A stretch of 64,000 bases of DNA from an uncultured Nitrospira sp. (GCA_963801505.1 CAWDEY010000002.1:14231-78230), one strand, 5' to 3'. Shown: positions 6,034-58,245, numbered from the stretch's first letter. Made by a program: numbers and translations. Notes: generated by a model from the sequence alone, not told the origin.

Positions 6034-7187
6034 CAAAGAATAAACAGAAAAAAAATACTGCTGAAAAACGAAAGCAGCCATGCGTCTCTAAATCAGACAG
6101 GATAACGAAGAAAGAGGCCCTGGCCATGCTCAAGGGCGCTGACCTGCTGGATCTCGGCCTGACAGCCGACAGCATGAGAAAGCGTCTTCACCCCAACAAG
6201 ACCGTCACATTCGTTGTTGACCGGAACATCAACTATACGAATGTCTGCATCAACAAATGCACCTTCTGCGCCTTCTGGAGGGATGAAGACGATTCTGACG
6301 CCTATATCCTTGACAGAGATGTCCTCTTTGAAAAGATAGAGGAGACCCTGGACCTGGGAGGCACACAGATACTGATACAGGGGGGACTGCATCCTGATCT
6401 GGATATCGACTGTTACATCGACCTCCTGAGGTCCATAAAGGAGAGGTTCGAGATAAACATCCATGGCTTTTCTCCTCCCGAGATATGCTATATCGCTGAT
6501 TCCTCAGACCTGACGATTCAGGAGACCTTGCGTATTCTGAGAGAGGCAGGTCTTGATTCAGTCCCTGGCGGGGGCGCGGAGATACTCTCTGACAGGGTCA
6601 GGGAGGTCCTGAGTCCGAGAAAGATAAAATCCTCCCGCTGGCTGAAAGTAATGGAGACAGCGCACAGGCTCGGCATGAGGACAACTGCCACAATGATGTT
6701 CGGGAGCATCGAGAGCCCTGAAGATATCATCACTCATCTGGATGCAATCAGGGAGCTCCAGGACAGGACAGGCGGGTTCACGGCCTTTATCCCATGGTCG
6801 TTCCAGCCGGGCAATACGGAATGGTAAATAGCTCTGGAAGCGGGGATTAGCAGCAAACCGACAAAAGCTAACCAGGACCCAGACCCCAGCCCCTCAGATC
6901 AGGCTACCGCTGTTGAGTATCTGAAGGTTCTGGCATTGTCGCGGATATACCTTGATAACATCGACAATATACAGGCCTCATGGGTCACGCAGGGTCTTAA
7001 GCTCGCGCAGGTGGCCCTAAGGTTCGGGGCTAATGACTTCGGTTCAACCATGATAGAGGAAAACGTTGTGGCCTCCACAGGGGTCAGCTTTAAAACCTCA
7101 AAGCACGAGATCATAAATGCTATCAGGTCGGCTGGTTTTATTCCTGCACAGAGAGATACTTACTATAATATTATTAAAAAATATTGA
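6030..7187 (+). pseudogene. mqnC: radical-SAM MqnC-like (cyclic dehypoxanthine futalosine synthase) gene interrupted by an in-frame TAA
   Basis: ORFs 6030-6827 and 6936-7187 are in the same frame; CINKCTFCAF motif; TAA at 6825-6827 sits at the edge of a repeat-derived insertion; the C-part resumes with ATAVEYLKVLALSRIYLDN. Confidence 0.7.
6825..6904 (+). repeat. heptamer-array element inside mqnC
   Basis: C-rich 7-nt periodic arm AACCAGG ACCCAGA CCCCAGC CCCTCAG ATCAGGC, preceded by an A-rich spacer and a G-rich segment GGAAGCGGGGATTAGC. Confidence 0.6.
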
Positions 7188-8897: not shown

Positions 8898-9102
8898 TCT
8901 GAATTGACGATCAAAGCTGCCTGACAATTTGACAGTATTTCCGGTTTTATGTTTTAATAATTTCGCTTTTAAAAATAGCCCGGCGAGGCTAAAAAGGCAA
9001 AGGAGTCAGCGTGAGCTGCATTCAAAACATCAAATCTCAACCAAACCTTCAAAACGCTGCAATTGCGTCCGCGCCAGACTATTTTCCCAACTCCGGAGTC
9101 AT

Positions 9103-9272
9103 AAAACTAAAAACGACAGTTCATTCACCACAGAGACACGGAGACTCTGAGAAAACAAAGGGTTGTAGAATAATTTTGTTTCGCCATCAAGGAGAAGGAA
9201 TCATTCAGGCTTTTTCTCTTACTTCTCAACTCTGTGCCTCAGTGTCTCTGCGGTTAACTGCTTTTTCAAGGA
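9103..9272. mobile_element. MITE-like element, family A copy 1 (CCACAGAG-type terminal inverted repeats)
   Basis: Left end CTAAAAACGACAGTTCATTCACCACAGAGACACGGAG and right end CTCAGTGTCTCTGCGGTTAACTGCTTTTTCAAGG are inverted. The core is about 85 percent identical, in reverse orientation, to 35034-35199. Confidence 0.8.
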
Positions 9273-10719: not shown

Positions 10720-10723
<4 letters not shown>

Positions 10724-12041
10724 ACATATTGATAAAAAACGGACATCTGGTTGACCCCTCTCAGGGGATTGACGGCATATGCGATATACTTGTAGAAAAT
10801 GGAAAAATCAAGGAAGTGCAAAAGCGCGGAAGTGCGGAAGCGCGGAAGAAAAAGAATTCGGAATCCCAAAATCCCGGGCCAGCGGGCTATCAGATCATCG
10901 ACGCAACGGACATGCTCGTCCTTCCAGGCCTTGTTGATATGCATGTTCATTTGAGAGAGCCGGGCTTTGAATACAAGGAGACCATACAGACAGGCACAGA
11001 GGCTGCGGTAGCAGGTGGGATCACCTCGGTCTGCTGCATGCCAAATACAAACCCTGTAAATGACAACGCAAGCGTAACTGATTTCATACTGAAAAGGACA
11101 ATGGAGAGAGGATTTTGCGACGTATTCCCTGTAGGCGCCATCACAAAAGGCCAAAAAGGTGAGGAACTCGCTGAATTCGGTATGATGTACGAGGCAGGGT
11201 GTATCGCCTTTTCTGATGACGGCAGGCCTGTCACGGACAGTCTGATAATGCGCAGGGCACTTGAATATTCAAAGATATTCAACGTGCCGGTAATATCCCA
11301 TGCAGAGGACATCTCCCTTTCTGCCGGAGGGGTAATGAACGAAGGGCTCCTGTCGTTCAAACTCGGGCTCAAGGGCATCCCATCGCAGGCTGAAGAGATC
11401 ATGATCTGCCGTGACATCGCCCTTGCAGAACTTACAGGAGGCCGTCTGCATATAGCGCATGTCTCGACAAAAGGCTCTGTTGAACTGATACGGTCAGCCA
11501 AAAAGAGAGGTATCGCGGATGTCACTGCCGAGACCTGTCCTCATTATTTCAGCATCACAGAAGAGGCAGTCGAAGGATATAACACAAACGCCAAGGTAAA
11601 CCCGCCACTGAGAAGAAATGAGGACGTGGAGGCGATCAAGGAAGGGGCTCACGGACAACACCATAGATGTTATCGTCACAGACCACGCACCGCATCACAG
11701 GGATGAAAAACTCGGGGAATTCGATCTGGCGCCTTCAGGCATTTCAGGGTTTGAAACATCAATAGGCCTGAGCATGAAGCTCGTTGATGAAGGGGTCCTC
11801 ACTCTGAAGCAGCTGATAGAGAAGATGACCCTGAATCCCTCAAAGATCGTAGGCATAAGTAAAGGGACGCTTAGAGCAGGGAGCAGATGCAGACCTCGTA
11901 ATTCTGGATACACACAATGAATATACAGTTGATTCAGCCGGCTTCAGATCAAAGGGAAAGAACACTCCTTTTGAGGGATGGAAACTCAAGGCCAGGCCGG
12001 TTGCAACCATCTCAAAGGGAAGGATATATACATGGCAATAA
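10720..12041 (+). pseudogene. pyrC: dihydroorotase gene carrying two +1 frame breaks
   Basis: [14 protein letters not shown] in frame 1. [19 protein letters not shown] follows in the next frame after the GGGG run at 11644-11647. [15 protein letters not shown]...[10 protein letters not shown] follows in the third frame after about 11885. Stop overlaps the carA ATG. Confidence 0.85.
10824..10878 (+). repeat. bipartite short-tandem-repeat element inside pyrC
   Basis: GCGCGGAA GTGCGGAA GCGCGGAA, spacer GAAAAAG, then AATTCGG AATCCCA AAATCCC; encodes [15 protein letters not shown] within a loop preceding the PGLVD metal site. Confidence 0.7.
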
Positions 12042-13210
12042 AGGCGTTACTCGTTCTCGCAGACGGAATGGTCTTTGAAGGCAGTGGTTTCGGTGCAGAA
12101 GGTGAAACTATCGGGGAAGTGGTCTTTAACACCTCGATGACAGGCTACCAGGAGATACTGACAGACGCCTCCTATAAAGGCCAGATCGTCACCATGACCT
12201 GCACGCAGATAGGCAACTACGGCATTACGGAAGAAGACATCGAATCTGCGGGAGGCATAAAGGCAGAGGGTTTTATCGTAAAGGAGGCCTGTGATTTCCC
12301 GAGCAACTGGCGCTCGTCTTCAAGCCTGATTGGATACATGAAAAAATACAACGTCGTCGGCATTCAGGGCCTGGATACCAGGGCCTTGACTAAACATCTG
12401 AGAAACTGCGGGGCGCAGCCAGGGATCATCTCGACCATTGAGGCAGATCCTTTGAATCTTCTGAAAAAGGTCAGGGCCCATCCCGGGATATCCACCTTTG
12501 ATCTTGTCAAAGAAGTGACGACTGATAAGGTCTATCATTGGACAGAGGGTTGCTGGAAATGGGGACTTAACAATGGGATTGGGGATTCGGGATTGGAGAT
12601 TGGATTAAAAGATAAGACTAACCCCCAGCCCCCAATTCCTAATCCCTATAAAGTGGTTGTATATGACTTTGGTGTCAAGTTCAATATTTTGAGAAACCTT
12701 GTGACTGCGGGGTTCCACGTCACTGTTGTGCCTGCACAGACACCTGCAGAGGCTGTGCTTGAAATGCAATCTGACGGCATCCTGCTGAGCAACGGACCAG
12801 GTGACCCTGAAACAGTGACCTACGCGATAGAAAATACTAAAAAATTACTGGGGAGGAAGCCGATATTCGGCATCTGTCTCGGACATCAGATACTAGGGCT
12901 TGCCCTGGGTGGCAGGACGTACAAACTGAAATTCGGCCACCATGGCGGGAACCACCCTGTCAAGGACTTGTCTACCGGCAAAGTCGAGATAACATCGCAA
13001 AACCACAATTATTGTGTAGACATAAAAAGCCTGCAGGGCAAGGTCAGACTCACGCATACAAACCTCTATGACAACACAGAGGAAGGCATGCAGCATCTGG
13101 AACTCCCGGTCTTTTCAGTGCAGCATCATCCTGAGGCTGGGCCTGGACCAAATGATTCAACACATCTTTTTGGAAGGTTCAGGCAACTGATACAAAACGG
13201 TACATTTTGA
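12032..13210 (+). CDS. carA: carbamoyl-phosphate synthase small (glutaminase) subunit
   Basis: [12 protein letters not shown] start, IFGICLGHQ active-site Cys, HHPE; the ORF-track start at 11978 is an artefactual extension across the pyrC 3-prime end. Confidence 0.93.
12575..12646 (+). repeat. bipartite heptamer-array element inside carA (72 nt)
   Basis: GGGATTG GGGATTC GGGATTG GAGATTG ..., spacer AAAAGATAAGAC, then TAACCCC CAGCCCC CAATTCC TAATCCC; the second arm is roughly the reverse complement of the first. Confidence 0.85.
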
Positions 13211-13839
13211 AGAGTGCGGCAGAGAAAAACTATACGATAGACAAAGAGGAGGGCAAACTCATTTTTACTACTCCGGCATACAGGGCTGATCCTGACAGTG
13301 TTCTGCACAGCGGAATATACAACAGGGAGTTTTCATCCATGCTCGCCTCAGCTACCTCAGGCGGGATTGTGTATATAATTACTGCCATGAATACAGGCAA
13401 TACAATTGCCCGTTCAATGGCCTTTCTGCTGACCTTTGCCGTAAGTTTCCCCTTCTTCAGAAAATATATTTTCAGAGAGCACTTTCTGGAAGTGGTCTTC
13501 GATGCTGCCGCCGGAGAGGCTAAGATACTCAAAAGCCGGATAACAAAGAGATTGAAGGAAACGATCTCTATAAAGAACATAAAGGACATCACCATTGAAA
13601 GCAAAAAGCACGAAGCAGACAATCCTGATGCCGTGAGATTTGTTAAACAAATATCCCTTCAGCACGGAACAGTCATCCCCGGCTTTGGTGATGAAAAAAC
13701 ACTCTTCCTGCTGAAACTGCATCTGTCCGACGGTTCTGAAAGGACCATTTATACGGACAATACTATGCAGGATGTGCTCTCTGCACATGATGAAATAAAG
13801 GAATTTCTGGGATTTATAAATGTGCAGGTGGATAGCTGA
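13207..13839 (+). CDS. hypothetical membrane protein between carA and carB
   Basis: 210-aa ORF; TTG start overlaps the carA stop; two central hydrophobic helices; no family recognised. Confidence 0.4.
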
Positions 13840-13863: not shown

Positions 13864-13954
13864 GGCGTCAGGCACAAGGCGTCGGGCATGAGATGACCGG
13901 ACAAGCCGCTGCAGAAATTTGGAACTTGGCAGCCTTCAGACTTCGCTCTAAACG
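13864..13954. repeat. bipartite heptamer-array element, intergenic (orf-carB)
   Basis: GGCGTCA GGCACAA GGCGTCG GGCATGA GATGACC, 21-nt spacer, then TGGAACT TGGCAGC CTTCAGA CTTCGCT CTAAACG. Confidence 0.65.
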
Positions 13955-14002: not shown

Positions 14003-17000
14003 TTGCCAAAGAGAGAAGATATTAAAAGCATCCTTATCATCGGCTCAGGTCCGATTATCATAGGACAGGCCTGTGAGTTTGATTACTCCGGAACGCAGTC
14101 ATGCAAGGCCCTGAGAGACGAAGGCTACAAGGTCATTCTGGTAAACTCCAATCCGGCAACTATCATGACGGACCCTGAGACCGCTGACGTCACTTACATC
14201 GAGCCGCTCAATGTCGAGATCCTGGAGTTGATCATCGAAAAGGAGCGTCCTGATGCAATACTGCCCACCATGGGCGGTCAGACAGCGCTGAACCTCACAG
14301 TCGAACTCGCTGAAAAAGGCATTCTCGAAAAATACAACGTTGAACTCATAGGGGCCAAACTCCCTGCGATCAAAAAGGCCGAGGACAGGGAGCTGTTCAA
14401 AAAAGCTATGGCGAAGATAGGACTGGATGTCCCCAAAAGCTCGGCAGTAACCAGCATGAAAGAGGGGCTTAAAGCTGTGGAGCATTTAGGGTTCCCCGCA
14501 ATACTCAGACCTGCTTTTACACTCGGTGGAACAGGCGGAGGCATAGCCTACAACATGGAAGAATACACGGAACTCCTAGATAAGGGGCTGAAGCTCAGCC
14601 CCGTAAGACAGGTCCTTGTAGAGGAATCAGCCCTGGGATGGAAAGAGTATGAACTGGAAGTCATGCGGGACACGAAAGACAATGTTGTTATCATATGTTC
14701 CATAGAGAATTTTGATCCCATGGGAGTGCACACAGGGGATTCAATAACCGTGGCACCGGCCCAGACACTGACTGACAAGGAATATCAGAGGATGAGAGAC
14801 GCCTCTGTCGCGATCATCCGCGAAATAGGCGTTGACACGGGAGGGTCGAACATACAGTTTGCGATCAATCCTAAAAACGGCCGCATGATCGTCATAGAAA
14901 TGAACCCGAGGGTCTCAAGGAGTTCCGCTCTTGCGTCAAAGGCAACAGGTTTCCCGATTGCCAAGATAGCCGCCAAACTCGCGGTAGGACTTACCCTCGA
15001 TGAGATAAAAAATGACATAACACGTGAAACACCTGCATCCTTTGAGCCTACGCTGGACTATGTGGTGACCAAGTTCCCGAGGTTCGCCTTTGAAAAATTT
15101 CCCGAGGCAGACCCTGTGCTGACCACCCAGATGAAGTCTGTAGGAGAGGCCATGTCCATAGGCAGGACCTTTAAGGAATCCCTGCAGAAGGCCCTCCGGA
15201 GCCTTGAGACCGGAAGTTATGGTTTTGAGGAAGTCGACGGCGACCCTGACAGGATAAAGACAAAGCTGAAGATCCCCGGCGCTGAACGGATATGGTATAT
15301 CGCCCAGGCCATGCGTATTGGCATGGATATAAATACAATACATGAATATACACAGATAGACCCGTGGTTCCTGGAAAATATAAAGCAGATACTTGATATG
15401 GAAGATAAGATCAGGGCGGAAGCCCGGAAAAGGGAAAGAGCAGAAGGTCAGAAGCAGAAAAACATCGGCCCTTTGGACTTCCGGTCTTCAGCACTTCAGA
15501 ACCTCAGCACTATTGTCCGTGAGGCCAAGGAATACGGGTTCTCTGACAGAAGGCTGGCACAACTGCTCGGCACCGCGGAAATGGATGTCAGGGGATTCAG
15601 GAAGAAACATGGCATAGTCCCGATATATAAGATCGTGGACACCTGCGCTGCGGAGTTCGAGGCCTTTACCCCCTATCTTTATTCGACCTATGAAAGACCG
15701 TTCTACAAAATACAGGAGTCAGAAGTCAGAAGTCAGAAGTCAGAAGAAAAAAACAACTCGGAACTCGGAACCCGGAACTCGGAACTATTTTTTGATTGCG
15801 AGGCAAACCCCACAGACAGGCAGAAGGTGATCATTCTGGGGTCAGGCCCAAACAGGATAGGACAGGGAGTTGAATTCGATTATTGCTGTGTCCACGCAGT
15901 ATTTGCCCTGAGAGAACTAGGATATGAGACCATAATGATCAACTGCAACCCCGAGACAGTAAGTACAGACTACGATACCTCGGACAGACTCTATTTTGAA
16001 CCGCTCACTATCGAAGACACACTGAATATCATCGAAAAAGAGAAACCTATCGGCGTGATAGTCCAGGTAGGAGGTCAGACTCCTCTGAAGCTGGCGGTGC
16101 CCCTTGAAAAGGAAGGCATCAGGATCCTCGGGACCTCCCCGGATTCCATAGACCGCGCTGAGGACAGGAAACGTTTCAAGCAACTCCTCCATAAACTTCA
16201 GCTGAGACAGCCTGAAAGCGATACAGCCATGTCCGTGGAGGAAGCTGTCTCGGCAGCCCACAAAATCGGTTATCCTGTAATGGTACGGCCTTCCTATGTG
16301 CTCGGAGGAAGGGCCATGGAGATCGTCTATGATGAAGAGTCTATACGCGATTATATGGAGCGAACTGTAAAAGGCGCTCCCAAGCACCCCATCCTTGTCG
16401 ACAAATATCTGGATGATGCGATAGAGGTGGATGTTGATGCCCTCTCTGACGGCACGGACGTGATAATCGGCGGGGTAATGGAACATATAGAAGAGGCAGG
16501 CATACATTCCGGGGATTCGGCCTGCTCGCTGCCCCCCTATTCCCTTAACAACGATATCATCGCGGAGATCAAGCGGCAGACCAGCGCCCTGGCGCTCGAG
16601 CTGGGAGTTATCGGTCTTATGAACATACAGTTTGCGGTAAAAAAAGACGAGATCTATATCCTTGAGGTCAATCCCCGGGCTTCCAGAACTGTCCCTTTTG
16701 TCAGCAAGGCCACCGGCGTGCCGCTGGCAAAGCTCGCGGCAAAGATAATGGTCGGCAAGACCCTTAAGGAACTCGGGATAACAGAGGAAAAGACAATATC
16801 ACATGTCGCAGTGAAAGAAGCTGTATTTCCCTTTGACAAATTTGCCGGCGTTGACTCCATACTCGGGCCTGAGATGAAGTCAACCGGAGAGGTCATGGGA
16901 ATAGATGAAGATTTTGGACGGGCCTTCGCCAAGGCCCAGGCCTCCTCAGACAATGTGCTTCCCATAACAGGAAAGATAGTCATCAGCATCAGAGACAAGG

Positions 17001-17368
17001 ACAAGCCCGGGATATGCAATATCGTGGGAAGACTGTTCTCTGCTGGTTTTTCAATTGTCGCAACCAGGGGTACCGCCGCTTTTCTGAGTGAGAAAGGTCT
17101 TGAGGTGGAAGTCATAAACAAAGTCGGAGAAGGCAGGCCCCATATCGTTGACCTGATTAAAAACAAAGAGATAGTCTTTGTCATTAACACAGTCAGCGGC
17201 GCGCAGGCCCAGAAGGACTCTTTCTCGATCCGGAGGAGCGCACTTCAGTACGGGATACCCTTTACGACCACGGTCTCAGGCGCAAAGGCTGTAGTCAATG
17301 CTATAGAAATGCTCCGGAAGAAAAAAATAAATATTCGTTCGATACAGGAGTATCATAAATTATCGTAG
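14003..17368 (+). CDS. carB: carbamoyl-phosphate synthase large subunit
   Basis: Two ATP-grasp halves ([19 protein letters not shown] and [17 protein letters not shown]), oligomerisation and MGS-like domains; 1121 aa; intact despite an internal repeat insertion. Confidence 0.96.
15717..15785 (+). repeat. bipartite heptamer-array element inside carB (69 nt)
   Basis: (AGTCAGA)x4 AG, spacer AAAAAAAC, then AACTCGG AACTCGG AACCCGG AACTCGG AAC; encodes [23 protein letters not shown]. Confidence 0.9.
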
Positions 17369-24609: not shown

Positions 24610-27234
24610 CTACTTTTCTGTTTTTTTTTCACGCATATATCGCTTCAGTACAAATTTTCTCTCGTCTTCTTCTGTCTTCAGCCTTCCCCTGAGTTTTTCA
24701 TCCAGCAGTTCTTTCAGGATAAACTTGTAAAGGGGCCCTTGCCGGATGCCGATTTTCTTTAAATCGCTGCCTTTTACAAAGGGGGTTATCTTTTTCAGAT
24801 CTACCAGAAAGTGTGATATATCTTTTTTCTTATAAACGTCCTTCGTGATAGCCATTGAGAAGAGGATTATTTCTATACGGACATCTGCCAGCAGGTGATA
24901 AAGGCTCGCAGGGTCATGTGAAGGAAGTTTTTTAAGTATTTCATCTGATTCAGATATGCTCTTGAGGATAATTTCCCGTAGTCGTGGGGGAGCGGAAAGC
25001 CTTTCAAGTGCCTCTTCCCTGTCGCTATCGCTAAGGTTGGATAGAAGCGCCATGAGATATAAAACACCGGTGTCGGCCTTTTTCTCCAGATACAGGAGCT
25101 TATACCAGGCAACTGTCTCATACATTGATGAAAGTCTTGCCTCAAGTTTTTCATCAAAAACAAGGTGCTTGTGTATCATCTTCAGCAGCTCATAATCAGA
25201 AAGTTTTTTAAGAGTTTTCACAGGATTTGTTTCTTTAAACGCAATAAGCAGTTCTTCATAAAGACGTGATCCCGAAAGCTTTTCGAAGAGATTCATTTTG
25301 ATCGCTGATTTTATGAGGTTCTCTGTATGCCTGCTGAGTTTGAAGCCGAACCTCACGGCAAACCTGACTGCCCGGAAGGCCCTGGTCGGGTCTTCCACAT
25401 AACTGAGGTTATGGAGCACGCGTATGGTCTTGTCCCTTATGTCGCGCTGCCCTCCAAAAAAATCCATCAACAGGCCAAAATCTTTCTGGTTAAGCTTGAT
25501 CGCAAGTGTGTTGATGGTGAAGTCCCTTCTGTAAAGGTCCTTTTTTATGGAAGACATTTCAACTTTCGGCAGCGCGGCAGGAGACTCATAATACTCGGTG
25601 CGGGCCGTGGCAACGTCAAGCTCCAGGCCCTCATGAATGATCTTGGCTGTCCCAAAACGGGGATGAAACCTCGACCTGGCTTTCAGCCTTGCACTGAGCT
25701 CTTTTGCAAATAAGATACCGTCTCCCTCAATTACCAGATCAATGTCAAGATTTGCCTGTCCGAGCAATAAATCCCTGACCGATCCGCCAACAAGATAAAC
25801 ATTGACTCCCATCTTATCAGCCACTTCCCCGGCAGTTTTGAGTATCCTGAAGACCTTCGCAGGGAACCTGTCTTTTATCAGTGTTGAGAGGTTTCTGCTG
25901 ACCGCGCGAATTTCTGTTATATCCTCCTTGTCAACACGCCTTTTTCTCAGAAATTCTTCATACAATACCCTCAGCAGGTCTGTTCTTGTAATCGCGCCTG
26001 TTATACTTTCCCCTTTCAATACAGGCATAAAACGCTGATTATGTTCAATCATCATGGTTTCGATATCTCTGATAGGGGTATCATTTTCCACTGTCAGGGC
26101 CTCTGATGTGGAAAAATCACTGGCCTTGTTTTTTCTGAAACCGTGAAAGATGGCTTTTTCAACGATTTCCCTCGATATCAAGCCCGCATATTTTCCATCC
26201 CGGACAATCGGAAGCACATTGACCCCGAATTTTGTCATCATATCTTCTGCTTCTTTGATTAAACTGTCCCACTGAATTGTTACGACCGGACTCGTCATTA
26301 TGTCGGCGGCTGTCTTGCCTGGCTTAACATATACGGGCAATTTATCGACAAGTTTTTCAGCAACGACTTCAAGGGATGCCTCTCTTATGGTCGCCGAGGC
26401 AGCAGCGCGATGACCGCCGCCTCCGAATTCCTTAAGCAGCTCTCCGATATCCAGCTCCGGGACCCTGCTTCTCCCTATGATCAATATCTTTCCCTCCATA
26501 GCCAGCAGAAGAAGCACTGCGTCTATATCTTCGAGTTCCATTATTCTATGGGCCAGATGAGCGGCATCGCCGATATAAACCTCCCTCGCAGCCCTGGCGA
26601 TCACGATTCTTATCCCTCTGAGGACTATTTCATCAGATGATTTCACAAGCTCATTGAGGAGGTCCAGCTCTTCAACATTCAGTTCTGTTTTGATATAACT
26701 GGAGACTATATTGAGGTTTGCGCCTCTCTTAAGCAGGTATGAAACAGCCATCAGGTCTCTCTCTGTTGTAGAGGGGAAAAGCAGGGAGCCTGTCTCCTCA
26801 TAAATACCGAGCGCCATAATTGTAGCTTCCATCGGGGAAGGATGAAGTTTTTTGCCCTTCAGCAGCTCGACAAACAACGTAGCTGTAGCGCCTACCTTTT
26901 CCAGTTTTTCAACTTCTCCCCGTATATCATTTTTTTCAAACGGGTGATGATCATAGATATGAACGGTCAGTCTTTTGTTTTCAAGCAGTTCCGCCAGAGA
27001 AGCCAGCCTGTCGCGTTGCTTTGTATCAACGATAATAAGCGTGTCCACTGTTTCCGGATCGATGTCCTTCATCCGGTTGATCTTGACAGGGTCAAAAACC
27101 TCTATAAAGTCACGCACCTTTTTTTCCTGTGAGCCGGGAAACACAAGCAGCGCTTCAGGATACAGTTTTTTGGCTGCAATCATCGAGGCAAGGGAATCAA
27201 AGTCCGCGTTTATGTGCGACGTTATAATTTTCAC
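24610..27234 (-). CDS. DHH/DHHA1 - CBS pair - poly(A) polymerase/CCA-adding nucleotidyltransferase fusion protein
   Basis: N-terminal HINADFDSLAS (DHH) and GGGGHRAAAS (DHHA1), two CBS modules, then VYLVGGSVRDLLLG..DIDLVIEGD (PolA head) and RDFTINTLA. Confidence 0.85.
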   Translation of the reverse strand: MKIITSHINADFDSLASMIAAKKLYPEALLVFPGSQEKKVRDFIEVFDPVKINRMKDIDPETVDTLIIVDTKQRDRLASLAELLENKRLTVHIYDHHPFEKNDIRGEVEKLEKVGATATLFVELLKGKKLHPSPMEATIMALGIYEETGSLLFPSTTERDLMAVSYLLKRGANLNIVSSYIKTELNVEELDLLNELVKSSDEIVLRGIRIVIARAAREVYIGDAAHLAHRIMELEDIDAVLLLLAMEGKILIIGRSRVPELDIGELLKEFGGGGHRAAASATIREASLEVVAEKLVDKLPVYVKPGKTAADIMTSPVVTIQWDSLIKEAEDMMTKFGVNVLPIVRDGKYAGLISREIVEKAIFHGFRKNKASDFSTSEALTVENDTPIRDIETMMIEHNQRFMPVLKGESITGAITRTDLLRVLYEEFLRKRRVDKEDITEIRAVSRNLSTLIKDRFPAKVFRILKTAGEVADKMGVNVYLVGGSVRDLLLGQANLDIDLVIEGDGILFAKELSARLKARSRFHPRFGTAKIIHEGLELDVATARTEYYESPAALPKVEMSSIKKDLYRRDFTINTLAIKLNQKDFGLLMDFFGGQRDIRDKTIRVLHNLSYVEDPTRAFRAVRFAVRFGFKLSRHTENLIKSAIKMNLFEKLSGSRLYEELLIAFKETNPVKTLKKLSDYELLKMIHKHLVFDEKLEARLSSMYETVAWYKLLYLEKKADTGVLYLMALLSNLSDSDREEALERLSAPPRLREIILKSISESDEILKKLPSHDPASLYHLLADVRIEIILFSMAITKDVYKKKDISHFLVDLKKITPFVKGSDLKKIGIRQGPLYKFILKELLDEKLRGRLKTEEDERKFVLKRYMREKKTEK

Positions 27235-29109: not shown

Positions 29110-29274
29110 CCTAAAAACGGCAGTTCGTTCACCACGGAGGCACAGAGACGCTGAGAAAACGCGGGTTTGAGGCAAATAGGGGACTGACCAATTTGGTTGC
29201 GCCCCTATCCTGCCCGTAACTTCTTGATTCTACTCTGTGATCTCTGTGTCTCTGTGGTTAAGTGCTTTTTTCAG
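29110..29274. mobile_element. MITE-like element, family A copy 4
   Basis: CCTAAAAACGGCAGTTCGTTCACCACGGAGGCACAGAGACGCTGAG ... CTCTGTGATCTCTGTGTCTCTGTGGTTAAGTGCTTTTTTCAGG; imperfect terminal inverted repeats of about 45 nt. Confidence 0.8.
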
Positions 29275-30950: not shown

Positions 30951-31026
30951 AATAATTTACTACGGATAGAATATAAGAAATGATAAATGATGTCAAATAT
31001 TCGAAAAGAAATTGACCCCAAATCCC

Positions 31027-35033: not shown

Positions 35034-35199
35034 GCAATTAACCACAGAGACACGGAGGCACAGAGTTTAAAAGCAAGAGAAAAGGCCTGAAAGAATCCTT
35101 CTCCCCGACGAAGAAACAAAATTATTCGACAACCCTCTGTTTCCTCAGTGTCTCTGTGCCTCTGTGGTAAATGAACTGTAGTTTTTAGGATGCACAAAA
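35034..35199. mobile_element. MITE-like element, family A copy 2, between gspM and gspN
   Basis: TTAACCACAGAGACACGGAGGCACAGAG ... CTCAGTGTCTCTGTGCCTCTGTGGTAAATGAACTGTAGTTTTTAGG; core homologous to 9103-9272. Confidence 0.8.
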
Positions 35200-38114: not shown

Positions 38115-38498
38115 TCATTTCCTCATGTATTGAAGGAGTATTGCTTCATCCTTGCCTGAGCCGGCCCTTGAGGTCACCTTCTTCATATGATATTCCATGT
38201 CTTCCGTCTTTATCTCGTAATCTATTCCGTTTTTTGTGCCTTTAAGTTCTATAAGTTTACCGGTCCTGTAAAGGTAGAGGTCCTCCTTTGCCTGCAACAC
38301 CAGTTTGAGGCTGTCCTTCTTCCTGTCAAAAATATCGATATGGTATGAAAACGAAGTGAGCACCAGCAGGAATACCCCGCTTACAATAGCAAGCGCCACA
38401 AGGACCTCAATAAGGGTAAAGCCTCTGTGGGGCTCGGGGATTGGGGATTGGGGATTTGCACCGCATGAACTATGCGCCATTAACTTCTTGTTACTCAT
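38115..38498 (-). CDS. gspI: type II secretion minor pseudopilin (GspI-like) with repeat-expanded leader
   Basis: [17 protein letters not shown]; 127 aa; the leader contains ANPQSPIPEP, encoded by an AATCCCC heptamer array. Confidence 0.6.
   Translation of the reverse strand: MSNKKLMAHSSCGANPQSPIPEPHRGFTLIEVLVALAIVSGVFLLVLTSFSYHIDIFDRKKDSLKLVLQAKEDLYLYRTGKLIELKGTKNGIDYEIKTEDMEYHMKKVTSRAGSGKDEAILLQYMRK
38429..38456 (-). repeat. heptamer array (GGGGCTC GGGGATT x3 on the plus strand) in the gspI leader
   Basis: Four contiguous 7-nt units read directly from the sequence. Confidence 0.85.
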
Positions 38499-39073: not shown

Positions 39074-39589
39074 TCACTCCAACTCCCAGCTCTTTATGTC
39101 GGCGTCCTTGCCTTCTCCTTCCGGCTTTCCGTCTGCCCCATAGGAGATGATGTCAAAGTCGCCGTGTGTTCCAGGAGATATATAAATAAATGGATTTCCC
39201 CAGGAGTCCTTTGGTATTTTAGTCTTCTCCAGGTAACCGTCTTCTTTGTATTTTTTCGGTATTGGTTCTGTCTCCGGCTTTTTAACAAGGGCCTCGAGCC
39301 CCTGATCTGTCGTTGGATATAAACCGTTATCGAGCTTGTAGAGCTTCAGGGCTGTTTCAAGGTTCTTCATCTGCAGCTTTGACTCTGCTATTTTGGCATC
39401 GTCAGTACGACCAAGCATCTTCGGCGCCACCAGAGCGGCGAGTATGCCAAGAATGAATACCACGACAAGCACCTCAATAAGAGTAAAGCCCTTTGGGGAT
39501 TGGGGGTCAGGAATTGGGGGTTGGGGTCCGAAAAAACTCTCAACTCTCAACTCTAAACCCTCAACTTTCTGCAAACTGTTTATCCTCAT
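39074..39589 (-). CDS. gspG: type II secretion major pseudopilin GspG with repeat-expanded leader
   Basis: [25 protein letters not shown]...[20 protein letters not shown]...WGNPFIY is a classic GspG core; it is preceded by a 33-residue leader. Confidence 0.88.
39495..39570 (-). repeat. bipartite heptamer-array element in the gspG leader
   Basis: Plus strand: GGGGATT GGGGGTC AGGAATT GGGGGTT GGGGTCC, spacer GAAAAA, then ACTCTCA ACTCTCA ACTCTAA ACCCTCA ACTTTCT. Confidence 0.85.
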
Positions 39590-47259: not shown

Positions 47260-47341
47260 GATTCCGGACAAGCCGGAATGACAAAGCCGGATGTGAGAGC
47301 CTTTTTCTGTCATTCCAGCAAGTGAAGCGCGTCTGGAATCC
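47260..47341. repeat. small inverted-repeat element (GGAATGACA / TGTCATTCC type)
   Basis: GATTCCGGACAAGCCGGAATGACAAAG ... CTGTCATTCCAGCAAGTGAAGCGCGTCTGGAATC; a related hairpin is nested in 61358-61585. Confidence 0.6.
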
Positions 47342-47554
47342 TTTTTAGTGCAGCGTGCTAAAACCCCAGCAGAAGGGCCACTACGTCAGTTCGTTATGCG
47401 ATTTACCCCTATGGATGCCTGCGTAATTGGGAAAAATCTCCTCTTTCAACTTATTTGTTCCAAATAATATTATCGACATCAGGAAAGAAATTGCAGCGTT
47501 GATATCGTTCGCATAATAGCCAGTTTATATCTTCGGCAGAAAATGAAAATTCCA

Positions 47555-50770: not shown

Positions 50771-52974
50771 TTAAAGCGGCCTGGTCACTATCGTAGGGGT
50801 TAAAAAGATGAGCATTTCCTTAATGTTAGGTCCTGTCACATTTTTTGTTTTAAACAGCCAGCCAAGACCGGGTATCTTGCTTAAAAGAGGCACCCCGTCT
50901 TCACTTTCAGTTACACTTGTTGTGTATATGCCACCCAATACCAGTGTCTCACCACTCTTGATAAGGGCATTGGTAGTCAGAGTTTCTTTGTATTGATAAC
51001 TGTATTGTTACCGGCAGTGCCGCTTTCGATGCTGTCGTCTGATGCAGTGACCTTTAGCTGGATATAGCCGTCAGGCGTGATCTTCGGAGTGACATCAAGG
51101 CTCAATGTGGCCTTTTTCTCCTCTGTTGACGGCACGCCTGTTGTACTTACTGTTTGAACAAAGAATGAACGTCCCTGCTGTATGTTGGCAGCTTCGTTGT
51201 CCATGGTTAAGATCCTCGGGTTTGATAAGGTCTTGGACTTGCCGATGGATTCAAGGGCGGAAAGGGACAGATTAACCTTTACGGTGCTGGCATTGCCTAC
51301 AGTAAAATCTAAGGCGCCCCCGGTATTTGCAGTTGCTGGTGCCTGCTGCTACAGTCGGGGTATTTACTGAAAAGTTACCGCCAAGCGTATTCGGATAAGA
51401 CGGGACGTGCAAATGACCCGCCCCATCTTATCCCCAATGATTCGCTATAATTGGTCGCAACTTCAACTATCTTTGCCTCTATCATCACCTGAGGCTTTGG
51501 AACATCCATTATAGTCACAAGCTCTTTTATTTTATCTATACTCTTCTGTGTGTCCTTTAAAATAAGCGTGTTCATCCTCGTGTCTATTGCTATGCTGCCC
51601 CGCGAAGTAAGCAGTTTGCCGCTATTTACAGCAGCTGTTGATGTCAGTCGGCAGACGCATAGTTGACGCGTACTATCTCCTGCTCAAGGTCTTCTGTATT
51701 TTTCTCCTTTCTCCTTTGCTTTTTGCTTTTCCTCGGACATCCTGGTCAACACATTGGTCGGTGCAATCCAAAGGATATTGCCTTCAATGGATTTGGACAG
51801 GGGTGGTTTATTGAGTATTGAGTATTATATCCAACGCCTGGTCCCATGGCACATTTAAAAGCTTAATGGTAACATTTCCCTTTACAGCCGGATGCAGCAC
51901 CAGATTGTAGCCGCTGACATCTGCCAGGAGTCTGAATATGGGCCTGACATCCGCATCTTGAAAATCAAGAGATATTTTCTTCCCTGTATATTCGCCTTCA
52001 ATCAGTTTTTCCGGTTCCTGCACAGGCTGGACCGGCTTTGCAGGTACCTCTGCAGCAGTTGCTGCAACAACTGTTTTTTCGGATTTATTATGGGCCTGAG
52101 ATACTGATGTCTCCTTAGCCAGCAGTGAAATCTCAATGGAATTCCCTGTGGCAATGACGTCAAAATTAGTTTTCTGTTTCAGGTCCAGTACCAGCCTCAG
52201 CTTACCCTTGTGTTTTCCGGCCCTTATACCCTTTAAGGGCGAGATTACACTGTCCGGCAAAGTGGTATTCAATGTTACCTCAGGTATATCTATTACAATT
52301 CTTTCATTTACCGGAAAAACGTTAGGTATTATAGTGCCATTTCCTGTTATTAATACTTTTACAGCATCTGCAGTTTTTTTGATTTCTACTCCAGCGATCT
52401 CGGTTGCTTTAGGCACAGGCTGAATATTCTCTTCAACTGCTTTTAATGACATTAGCCGGGGGTTCAGTACTAGCCAAAGCAGGCCCATACGGACTTGCCT
52501 TCAGGGTCTTTAGGTTCCGGCAAAGCAACAGGCTCTTTAGGCTCTGACAAAACAACAGGCTCCTCTTTCTTAATTGAAAGCACGAGGGTATTGTCGTTGT
52601 AAGAAGGAGACACCGCAGACGGGAGTTTGCAGTATAATATCAATTTTAGCCACTGCATCCGGTGTATTGATCTGTTGTGGTATTATCTCTGTTATGCCGG
52701 ATTTATCTGAGACAATCTTGCTTGTGAATTTACCTACTGACATCCCGGGAATTTCTACCGTAACTTTATACGGATCATTTGAATTATATACCGTATAAAT
52801 AAAATTCTTATTACTCTTGATCACTACATCAGCATCCTCTATCGTAATATCAGTAATAACTGCTATTTCTTCTCCTGAAGATGCTTCTTTCTTTCCGGAT
52901 GTTGTAGCACAGCCAAGCAAAAGCATTAACCCCACAATTAATAAACAGAGCTTTAACATTTTATTATTTTTCAT
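50771..52974 (-). pseudogene. pilQ: type IV pilus secretin pilQ, heavily fragmented
   Basis: Lipoprotein signal, two AMIN-like domains, N0/N1 and secretin-domain peptides (LGIRWGG, NPRILTMDNEAANIQQG, VPLLSKIPGLGWLFK), spread over about 8 frame changes and stops. Confidence 0.85.
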
Positions 52975-56785: not shown

Positions 56786-56870
56786 AGGCTGAAGACCGCA
56801 CAAAGCGGCCGTTTAGACTGAATACTGAAGGCTGAAGCACCCTAACGACCGTCAGTCTATCCAACTTCAG
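56786..56870. repeat. degenerate heptamer/inverted-repeat element between nrnA and truB
   Basis: AGACTGA ATACTGA AGGCTGA then CGTCAGT...ACTTCAGG; the right end resembles the family C terminus and runs into the nrnA stop. Confidence 0.4.
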
Positions 56871-58185: not shown

Positions 58186-58245
58186 GGGATTGGAGGTTGG
58201 GTATTAGAGATTAGTTATTTACTAACCCCTGGCCCCTAACTCCTG
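58186..58245. repeat. bipartite heptamer-array element, intergenic (infB-rbfA)
   Basis: GGGATTG GAGGTTG GGTATTA GAGATTA, spacer GTTATTT, then ACTAACC CCTGGCC CCTAACT CCTGC. Confidence 0.75.

Follow-up and report, generated by a model that had tools for sequence, protein, structure and literature searches.

Short tandemly repeated repetitive (STRR) heptamers were reportedly described by Mazel et al. in 1990 from heterocystous cyanobacteria. In Xanthomonas, arrays of the heptamer GGGAATC most commonly contain four units, are 89–93% intergenic and include 70–75 convergent pairs that form an inverted repeat, and they are not located at the same genes in two related species (PMC4692102, Rehm et al. 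2015). Heptamer arrays of GGGGA(C/T)T in Nostoc PCC 7120 are 68% intergenic (PMC4692102). Repetitive extragenic palindromes (REPs) found within open reading frames (ORFs) add 20–30 residues, in frame, to the products of housekeeping genes, with frequent G·T pairs in their stems; different REPs occur at about the same recB site in two Xanthomonas species, and the Rickettsia palindromic elements (RPEs) are the Rickettsia case (PMC3733652, Di Nocera et al. 2013). Here we describe hairpin elements built of tandem 7- or 8-nt units in a 64,000-nt stretch of DNA from an uncultured Nitrospira sp. (GCA_963801505.1, CAWDEY010000002.1:14231-78230; hereafter the window, with positions counted from its first nucleotide), where they interrupt, in frame, carB, carA, pyrC and the prepilin genes of a type II secretion system (T2SS). 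An earlier note on this DNA, made from the sequence alone, had singled out the carB copy and, while naming STRR and the Rickettsia insertions as the nearest analogues, knew of no paired-array, in-frame case in such genes of a non-cyanobacterial genome. That view needs correcting, since paired convergent heptamer arrays occur in Xanthomonas (PMC4692102) and in-frame REP palindromes in ORFs of several bacteria (PMC3733652).

The 64-kb window was compared with ∼150 kb of relatives' DNA around two operons, the relatives' loci or genomes being labelled L001 and L161–L168. Tandem arrays were called with Tandem Repeats Finder (TRF) and periodicity was assessed by lag scans, with dinucleotide shuffles as controls and, in the stricter scan, at least 16 of 21 matches needed per segment. 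Folding is reported as a z score of the element's folding energy relative to shuffled sequences, domains were assigned by Pfam, CarB was matched to the Protein Data Bank (PDB) by phmmer, and element boundaries were placed by eye. Among the matches listed in the CarB and GspG comparisons, the nearest genomes and proteins came from uncultured Thermodesulfovibrionales/Nitrospirota metagenome-assembled genomes (MAGs), in agreement with the earlier statement that the host is not a cyanobacterium; the best CarB identities among the matches listed, which were mostly from distant phyla, were 75% (genome contigs) and 76% (metagenome contigs).

The carB gene (14003-17368, + strand) is an intact ORF of 1121 aa with a TTG start, matching E. 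coli CarB (1bxr) over its full length (E = 0). Because the alignment to 1bxr breaks at query residues 565/598 (E. coli residues 549/550), residues 566–597 constitute an insertion (15698-15793, + strand; site B). It lies between what we take, from established knowledge of E. coli carbamoyl phosphate synthetase, to be the oligomerisation domain and the second ATP-grasp half. The sequence at 15717-15785 is exactly as the earlier note had given it: a purine-rich 5′ arm of (AGTCAGA)x4 plus AG (15717-15746), an A-rich spacer or loop AAAAAAAC (15747-15754), and the units AACTCGG AACTCGG AACCCGG AACTCGG AAC; taken one nucleotide further, to AACT, the 3′ arm spans 15755-15786 and is a degenerate complement of the 5′ arm. 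TRF calls two period-7 arrays next to each other, one of 4.9 copies (96% matches; 15713-15746) and one of 4.6 copies (92%; 15755-15786). Both the bipartite architecture with its A-rich spacer and the in-frame position of the insertion, in the linker that precedes the second ATP-grasp half and with the 1121-aa ORF left open, were thus borne out by TRF and by the alignment to 1bxr. A second in-frame carB element, site A (15416-15510, + strand), had escaped the earlier list. It lies inside the oligomerisation domain, combines a purine-rich arm (..GCAGAAGGTCAGAAGCAGAA) with an 8-nt arm of the (CTTCAGCA) type (TRF period-8 array at 15486-15511), and accounts for ∼21 extra residues relative to E. 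coli CarB (query 470–495). An AlphaFold2 model of CarB, built on a 103-sequence alignment, was poor (mean predicted local distance difference test, pLDDT, of 64), with low confidence at residues 541–603, and gives a weak hint that the site B region may be disordered.

The earlier note missed that each of an element's two arrays is a degenerate reverse complement of the other, which makes the element a hairpin. Typically it consists of ∼4 units, a loop of 8–20 nt that is usually A-rich, and a further ∼4 units, with a unit length of 7 or 8 nt. Most clear elements fold much better than shuffles, including the carA copy at 12575-12647 (−31.0 kcal/mol, z −3.5), the gspG copy on the + (antisense) strand (−34.4 kcal/mol, z −4.4), the copy at 58186 on the minus strand (z −3.3), the carB orthologues of L161 (−33.4 kcal/mol, z −2.7) and L162 (−24.5 kcal/mol, z −3.4), and the L168 copies (z −4.3 and −5.1). 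The window carB copy, which had been put forward as the archetype, is instead a decayed copy that has lost its pairing, because it folds no better than shuffles: the mRNA strand folds worse than its shuffles (z +2.9), the antisense strand forms only periodic 5-bp stems with G·U pairs (z +0.3), and just 3 bp per unit are retained. No consistent preference of the hairpin for the sense or antisense strand was found across the copies folded. A search for inverted repeats with exact seeds picked up none of the window's elements, since their arms contain no exact 8-nt seeds. Of 19 paired elements, 18 have a G/purine-rich 5′ arm and a C-rich 3′ arm. The polarity is the same on both strands, and of these elements ∼13 of 14–15 are independent. 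The hairpin alone does not explain this polarity.

Arrays with units of 7 and 8 nt are enriched over both shuffled sequence and other bacteria, as the earlier note had led one to expect; in this clade of Thermodesulfovibrionales-like Nitrospirota the enrichment is ∼10-fold. The stricter scan yielded 6 period-7 segments in the window, compared with 0.05 in dinucleotide shuffles, and a looser scan yielded 8 period-7 and 3 period-8 segments, compared with 0.1 each; the looser scan of the window returned no segments at periods 5, 6, 9 or 10. Period-7 segments reached a density of 12.8 per 100 kb across 188 kb of clade DNA, and period-8 segments one of 4.8; the corresponding densities in carB loci of other bacteria (2.5 Mb in total) were 1.2 and 0.68. 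Periods 6 and 9 were not enriched in clade DNA relative to other bacteria.

The architecture recurs, as had been proposed, in carA, pyrC and T2SS pseudopilin genes, based on TRF and alignments. Six of the nine copies listed previously are solid (15717, 12575, 39495, 58186, 10824 and 38429); the other three (6825, 13864 and 56786) are weak, with no significant periodicity or fold, although comparison with relatives identifies 6825 and 13864 as sites of variable insertion. Paired heptamer arrays characterise the solid copies at 15717, 12575 and 39495, while 58186 has degenerate heptamers with a hairpin, 10824 has 8-nt units with a weak second arm, and 38429 is a single array. Besides site A, the earlier list lacked the CACAGAG-family arrays at 9127, 29233, 35134, 61372 and 61567, described below. 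Seven clear or probable copies in the window lie inside ORFs (6825, 10812, 12575, 15416, 15717, 38429 and 39493), and ∼3–5 are intergenic. The carA element (12575-12647, + strand, in frame) consists of (GGGATTG)x4, a 16-nt A-rich loop and AACCCCCAGCCCCCAATTCCTAATCCCT, and is placed in the linker between the CPSase small-chain and GATase domains (Pfam limits 25–151 and 227–403); clade relatives have other units at the same linker site, and orthologues of other phyla have no insertion. In pyrC, TRF and orthologue alignment locate an in-frame element in an N-terminal loop (10812-10880, + strand), with 4.5 8-nt units of the (GGAAGYGC) type, a spacer AAAAAGAA and a weak C-rich second arm, and with no significant fold. 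The intergenic copy in the infB-rbfA spacer (58186-58245) is of the GGGGATT type and has ACTAACCCC in common with the carA copy. Matches resembling GGGATT at 31014 and 60699 were set aside as chance or ribosome-binding-site matches.

Copies are present in T2SS genes, as had been noted, namely gspG and gspI, but within cleaved prepilin leaders, not the mature proteins. In gspG, paired arrays (39493-39566, − strand; TRF) are predicted to be translated as part of a 34-aa leader that precedes FTLIE; a Shine-Dalgarno sequence, AAGGAG, lies 7 nt before the ATG at 39589, and the N_methyl motif starts at residue 33. GspG of eight relatives has a common MRINS...KG|FTLIE with a variable middle of ∼24 residues, and more distant GspG proteins have leaders of 6–9 residues. 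In gspI, the leader contains a single array, (AATCCCC)x4 on the gene strand (38429-38456, − strand; TRF), and the L166 orthologue, with the canonical leader MKG|FTLIE, represents the empty site. The gspG hairpin (39490-39572) is stronger on the antisense strand in the window (−34.4 versus −22.2 kcal/mol), as is its counterpart in L166 (10010-10115; antisense −45.4 kcal/mol, z −5.6, versus −18.6 kcal/mol sense), and the wobble pairs of the gspG leader all fall on the antisense strand, though the units differ between the window and L166. A separate palindromic element of ∼95 nt, with termini GTCATTCC...GGAATGAC, was observed at 47262-47345 in the window, 4897-4983 in L162 and 365-465 in L165; it is intergenic in the first two and in frame in the GspG leader of L165, whose GspG is 195 aa long.

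Could these be functional structures under selection, either G-quadruplexes or RNA or DNA hairpins that pause ribosomes at the boundaries of domains, stabilise or terminate transcripts, or bind a heptamer-reading protein? The four-unit G-rich arrays (GGGGATT, GGGGTCA) match the G-quadruplex-forming repeats of Xanthomonas and Nostoc, including the preference for four units (PMC4692102), and (GGGGATT)3–4 and the (GGGGTCA)7 of L161 have at least four G-tracts; non-G units (CAAAGTT, GCATCAC, GAAGTCA), however, show the same architecture and also number ∼4. Coding copies sit exactly at domain junctions, the 58186 copy is inside the infB-rbfA operon, and the gspG leader arms co-vary between the window and L166, with the hairpin kept and G·U pairs on one strand only, all of which would suit a function. 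Yet the window carB copy has lost its pairing while the gene is still intact, the stronger strand is sense in some copies and antisense in others, sites can be empty (L166 gspI, L167 carA) or filled by unrelated sequences, and there was no Rfam match in the window. On balance we think selection for such structures distinctly unlikely.

Reading frame and stop codons constrain the coding copies. With a 7-nt unit every phase is read in turn, and a coding array must therefore lack stops in each of the three. In an ORF, a perfectly complementary arm is impossible for units with TCA (GAAGTCA, GGGGTCA) and for those whose complements form TTTGA (CAAAGTT); a perfect complement of the site B 5′ arm, for example, would contain TGA. 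The 5′ units whose perfect complement gives TGA (GAAGTCA, GGGGTCA and CAAAGTT) all have diverged 3′ arms, with 3–5 of 7 matches. Where the complement is stop-free (six cases), four arms remain identical or nearly so (7/7, 7/7, 6/7 and 6/8), and the other two have only 4/7 matches.

Comparison with orthologues shows where the insertions are tolerated. The site B insertion is absent from 11 CarB orthologues of other phyla, and the carB, carA and pyrC insertions are absent from orthologues in at least 11 other phyla; the earlier note had considered that unrelated phyla might encode the same peptide in non-repetitive DNA, and on alignment they were found to do without the peptide altogether. Within the clade, the carB linker, the second carB loop, the carA linker, the pyrC loop, an mqn-like gene and the GspG and GspI prepilin leaders are hypervariable hot spots. 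In L001 (75% CarB identity) the same three sites are also filled, by different sequences. Among 103 clade CarB proteins (79–93% identity), site B ranges from ∼5 to 33 residues with many unrelated peptide types, which are patchily distributed on a neighbour-joining tree, and site A is as variable as site B. These comparisons bear on the possibility that selection acts on the inserted peptide, perhaps as a flexible linker, the DNA periodicity being incidental. Invariable placement in frame and in linkers, with an insertion at the same three sites in all clade members examined, is what such selection would predict; but peptides that are unrelated between close relatives and so variable in length, a periodicity of 7 nt that is no codon multiple, the same units in intergenic DNA, and the phyla that lack any insertion make this explanation very improbable.

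Two kinds of change emerge when DNA from five near relatives is compared. The first, within an orthologous element, can be followed at site B. Identical flanks (ATACAG ... CTNTTTTTYGAYTGCGAG) enclose one and the same carB element in the window, L161 and L162, between which neutral divergence is 0.70–0.96 substitutions per 4-fold site. Each of their carB arrays is 92–100% homogeneous, with its own unit: AAGTCAG (5′) and AACTCGG (3′) in the window, GGGTCAG and AACTCCG in L161, and GRGTCAG and CACTCAT in L162. Units have changed in concert within each array, and a search for compensatory covariation was negative in the carB element, whose arms drift independently. The 5′ arm is (GGGTCAG)x7 in L161 and (GRGTCAG)x4 in L162, and the spacers are AAAAC and AAATAAAC, respectively. 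Compared with the window, L161 has 7 units instead of 4 (+21 nt) and a spacer 6 nt shorter; this step of three units is the sole difference in unit number seen inside an ORF. The L162 and L163 'types' are probably one orthologous element, because the carB elements of both (GGGGTCA type and GGGGATT type, respectively) carry the spacer motif GGAAATAAA.

Replacement of the whole element was also observed. L163 and L164, separated by 0.28 substitutions per 4-fold site, have unrelated site B sequences of 132 nt and 90 nt, respectively, between conserved flanks. L167 and L168 are 91.7% identical over 8.2 kb, and their pyr/car indels are restricted to the carA linker, where L168 has an additional 75 nt, and to carB site B, where L167 has a 35-nt GTAG-type palindrome and L168 has 80 nt of paired 8-mer arrays. 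Their flanks are 94–97% identical right up to the elements and no more diverged than the rest, which rules out import of a divergent allele on a long tract by homologous recombination. No target-site duplication was seen at the junctions compared, whether filled and empty or replaced. The GTAG-tagged, REP-like palindrome (GTAGGGGCACGG..CCTCTGCAG; L167 7665-7700) is itself in frame at carB site B of several clade members; it is found in many clade CarB proteins, with peptides like VGARHAVPLQ, and alternates with paired 8-mer arrays between sister genomes.

Based on differences in unit sequence between copies, the earlier note spoke of a structural class and not a sequence family. This was too strong, as the families GGGGATT, GAAGTCA/GGGGTCA, GGAAGCGC and CATCAC recur across unrelated loci and genomes. 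The L001 carA insertion, for instance, is built of (GAAGTCA)n, the unit of the window carB copy. A non-periodic sequence, ACTAACCCC, lies at the loop/arm junction of three GGGGATT-type copies (carA, the infB-rbfA spacer and L163 carB) that also have GAGATY as last unit; it occurs only twice in the window, both times at a loop/arm junction. Genomes also appear to have 'dialects': within the clade data CATCACN arrays are confined to three L162 loci, GGAAGCGC/CTTCCGC fills both L168 hot spots, and GGGGATT is found at four to five window loci.

Such sharing of sequences raises the question of whether these are true miniature mobile elements, of the REP, REPIN (REP doublet), miniature inverted-repeat transposable element (MITE) or RPE type, moved whole by a trans-acting enzyme such as a REP-associated tyrosine transposase (RAYT) or IS200-IS605 tyrosine transposase acting on single-stranded hairpins; hot spots would then be preferred targets and the tandem units a by-product. 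In addition to the unit families at unrelated loci and in different genomes and the shared ACTAACCCC junction and GAGATY unit, transposition would account for unrelated palindromes at the same sites (e.g. GTAG...CTGCAG in L167 carB), for the GTCATTCC...GGAATGAC element that is intergenic in two genomes and within the GspG leader of a third, for filled and empty sites (gspI in the window versus L166; carA in L168 versus L167), and for content replaced between 92%-identical genomes without extra divergence in the flanks. In-frame REPs in ORFs, with different REPs at nearly one recB site, provide a precedent (PMC3733652). Nevertheless, neither target-site duplication nor fixed termini were seen at the junctions compared, Pfam identified no transposase, reverse transcriptase or RAYT domain in the ∼40 ORFs of the window, copies in one genome differ in unit sequence and number and hence have no single master sequence, and orthologous copies evolve in situ in concert. 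We regard mobility of this kind as possible but doubtful. Integron attC-like sites (GTTRRRY core) were rejected, as the units do not conform to them and the neighbourhood has no integrase.

We consider it probable, with some reservation, that the elements are selfish or neutral hairpin repeats acting at the DNA level, remodelled by slippage and inter-locus copying, with reading frame, stops and loop location filtering the survivors. They would be lineage-specific, small and non-autonomous, with arms of ∼4 tandem 7- or 8-nt units, made and remodelled as DNA and not selected for the encoded peptide. The processes involved may include replication slippage within arrays, hairpin-promoted deletion or replacement, and copying or conversion between loci of one genome. 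Coding copies would survive only where the protein can spare them, in surface linkers or in leader peptides that are cleaved off, only if stop-free in three phases, and only with length changes in multiples of 3 nt, which for a single array means steps of three units. The survivors would simply be translated as a low-complexity, probably disordered, peptide. The carB copy would be old and orthologously inherited, its units replaced in concert and its hairpin decayed.

Several observations weigh against this reading of selfish or neutral repeats. The case for ongoing slippage comes from the single +3-unit difference of L161, and most type-a carB orthologues have exactly the same length, which is not expected of a freely slipping array. 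Slippage alone leaves the polarity (18/19), the ∼4 units per arm whatever the unit, and the genome 'dialects' unexplained, and the complete replacements between L163 and L164 and between L167 and L168 resemble the arrival of mobile DNA more closely than evolution in situ. Translation of the carB segment is presumed, the AlphaFold model adding little here, and some base-level details, such as the pyrC frameshifts and the mqn TAA described below, may reflect assembly error. A variant that would address part of this is a directional process, other than passive slippage, that builds arrays and keeps them uniform genome-wide; we think this unlikely. Breaks could be repaired by extending the two 3′ ends through reiterative copying of a short template before joining them, which would give a convergent G-rich array on each strand, ∼4 units long; alternatively, templated conversion from a pool specific to each genome could be frequent. 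The polarity, the constant arm length, the dialects and the wholesale replacement between 92%-identical genomes would be accounted for by either.

Assembly artefact is excluded as the source of the elements, because seven independent assemblies carry the same ones. At the level of single bases, errors in the window assembly are possible, as pyrC has two frameshifts and the mqn-like gene an in-frame TAA. The pyrC gene (10720-11920) is broken relative to L161 and L164 by an extra G in a GGGG run at ∼11644 and a second frameshift at ∼11880, which suggests homopolymer-type assembly errors or a pseudogene. In the mqn-like gene, a degenerate in-frame insertion (6825-6897, + strand), with no significant fold, lies between the Radical_SAM and CofH_C parts and opens with the TAA (6825-6827), such that the ORF ends at 265 aa, compared with 381 aa in L162. 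The frame stays open past the TAA into CofH_C, and the L162 orthologue reads through a different insertion; the TAA could represent an assembly error, a split gene, or readthrough or bypass.

The window encodes pyrR-pyrB-pyrC-carA-orf210-carB-pfk on the + strand, and a complete T2SS operon (gspC, D, E, F, G, H, I, J, K, L) and nusA/infB-rbfA-nrnA-truB on the − strand (Pfam). The two remaining weak candidates are intergenic: one, degenerate, in the orf210-carB spacer (13864-13935), which varies from 20 to 208 nt in relatives, and one between nrnA and truB (56786-56850), with a short (CTGAAKR) array at 56817-56837. The product of orf210 (13207-13839), which overlaps the carA stop, is 210 aa long and without a Pfam match; it is kept as 203–204 aa in L161–L164, L167 and L168 and is absent from L001 and other phyla. 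Upstream of pyrR, a non-coding segment (8925-9083) is 81–87% conserved with L161 and L162 and has no Rfam match; it may be a pyr leader/attenuator or another RNA. Rfam and ARAGORN gave no match anywhere in the window. The CACAGAG sequences form a separate dispersed intergenic family that starts with TTAACCACAGAG, followed by CACAGAG-type units of 8–9 nt (9127-9160, 9225-9258, 29233-29256, 35134-35166, 61372 and 61567; L162 9790-9990). Upstream of pyrR it has two inverted arms ∼75 nt apart, and a conserved module, AAACAAAGGGTTGTAGAATAATTTTGTTTC, is attached to it at 9160-9185 and 35105-35130. Lastly, an 874-aa fusion (24610-27234) combines DHH/DHHA1, CBS and a poly(A) polymerase/CCA-adding head domain, and a 27-nt tandem repeat (52502-52562; 2.3 copies, 85% matches) lies between the minus-strand ORFs 51808-52488 and 52570-52974, its unit being divisible by three, in contrast to the 7/8-nt arrays.

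If these patterns hold genome-wide, an entire Nitrospirota order would have fast-evolving, non-triplet hairpin repeats in essential enzymes and secretion-pilin leaders, providing a natural map of sites where CarB, CarA, PyrC and prepilins tolerate 5–35 extra residues. Such repeats would contradict the rule that only repeats in multiples of triplets live in ORFs, would show how frame and stop constraints shape a repeat (three-unit steps, mismatched arms that avoid TGA), and would serve as very fast strain markers. The polarity, arm length and genome-specific units could point to a new mechanism of repeat formation. Furthermore, such segments make marker proteins look more diverged than they are, and they give rise to spurious low-complexity ORFs when metagenomes are annotated.

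With regard to known systems, the elements combine features already seen in other bacterial repeats. Like STRR, they are dispersed, lineage-specific tandem heptanucleotide arrays, but the host is not a heterocystous cyanobacterium and STRR serve as intergenic fingerprinting targets. To our knowledge, the STRR description does not include paired, in-frame arrays within housekeeping enzymes. Like the Borg repeats, they are fast-evolving, recently formed in-ORF tandem repeats that add low-complexity peptide. The in-ORF units of Borgs, archaeal extrachromosomal elements, are said to be multiples of three and direct repeats without hairpins. Borg tandem repeats create disordered protein regions (PMC9879509). 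The similarity to the heptamer simple sequence repeats (SSRs) of Rehm et al. extends to head-to-tail 7-nt units above chance, dispersal, lineage enrichment and convergent pairs, and the GGGGATT unit, known from the Nostoc GGGGA(C/T)T arrays, occurs here at 12575, 38429, 39495 and 58186. Those SSRs are mostly intergenic, whereas most clear copies here are in ORFs and in frame, many units are not G-rich, 8-nt units occur too, and the host belongs to the Nitrospirota; hot-spot turnover and concerted unit replacement are not described for them (PMC4692102). With REPs and RPEs the elements share a palindromic structure in frame in intact ORFs, at inter-domain linkers or leaders. REPs and RPEs, however, have a family consensus, and GTAG REPs a RAYT partner, without tandem 7–8-nt units or array-wise concerted evolution. 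Unlike REP/REPIN (a 20–40-nt imperfect palindrome with a GTAG/CGTC tag), the heptamer-array elements have no tag or single consensus; unlike MITEs, they have no target-site duplication at the compared junctions and their arms are the only inverted repeat; and unlike RPEs (100–150 bp, with a conserved consensus, in Rickettsia), they are 56–95 nt long, composed of tandem units, variable between copies and hosted by Nitrospirota. Among long simple sequence repeats (LSSRs; units of 5–11 nt), heptanucleotides are the commonest class and polymerase slippage has been proposed (Mrazek et al. 2007, as summarised in PMC4679880). That summary also states that stop codons in the unit limit array location and that triplet-multiple units are the ones in coding regions (PMC4679880), a rule, at least as summarised, from which the mostly coding 7- and 8-nt units described here depart. 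The TAACTGA repeats of Beggiatoaceae are direct, unpaired and upstream of start codons (PMC4679880). As far as this literature shows, the new features are the phylum of the host, copies with 7/8-nt units that are predominantly coding and in frame, concerted evolution array by array under the constraint of three units, hot-spot turnover, and the location in prepilin leaders.

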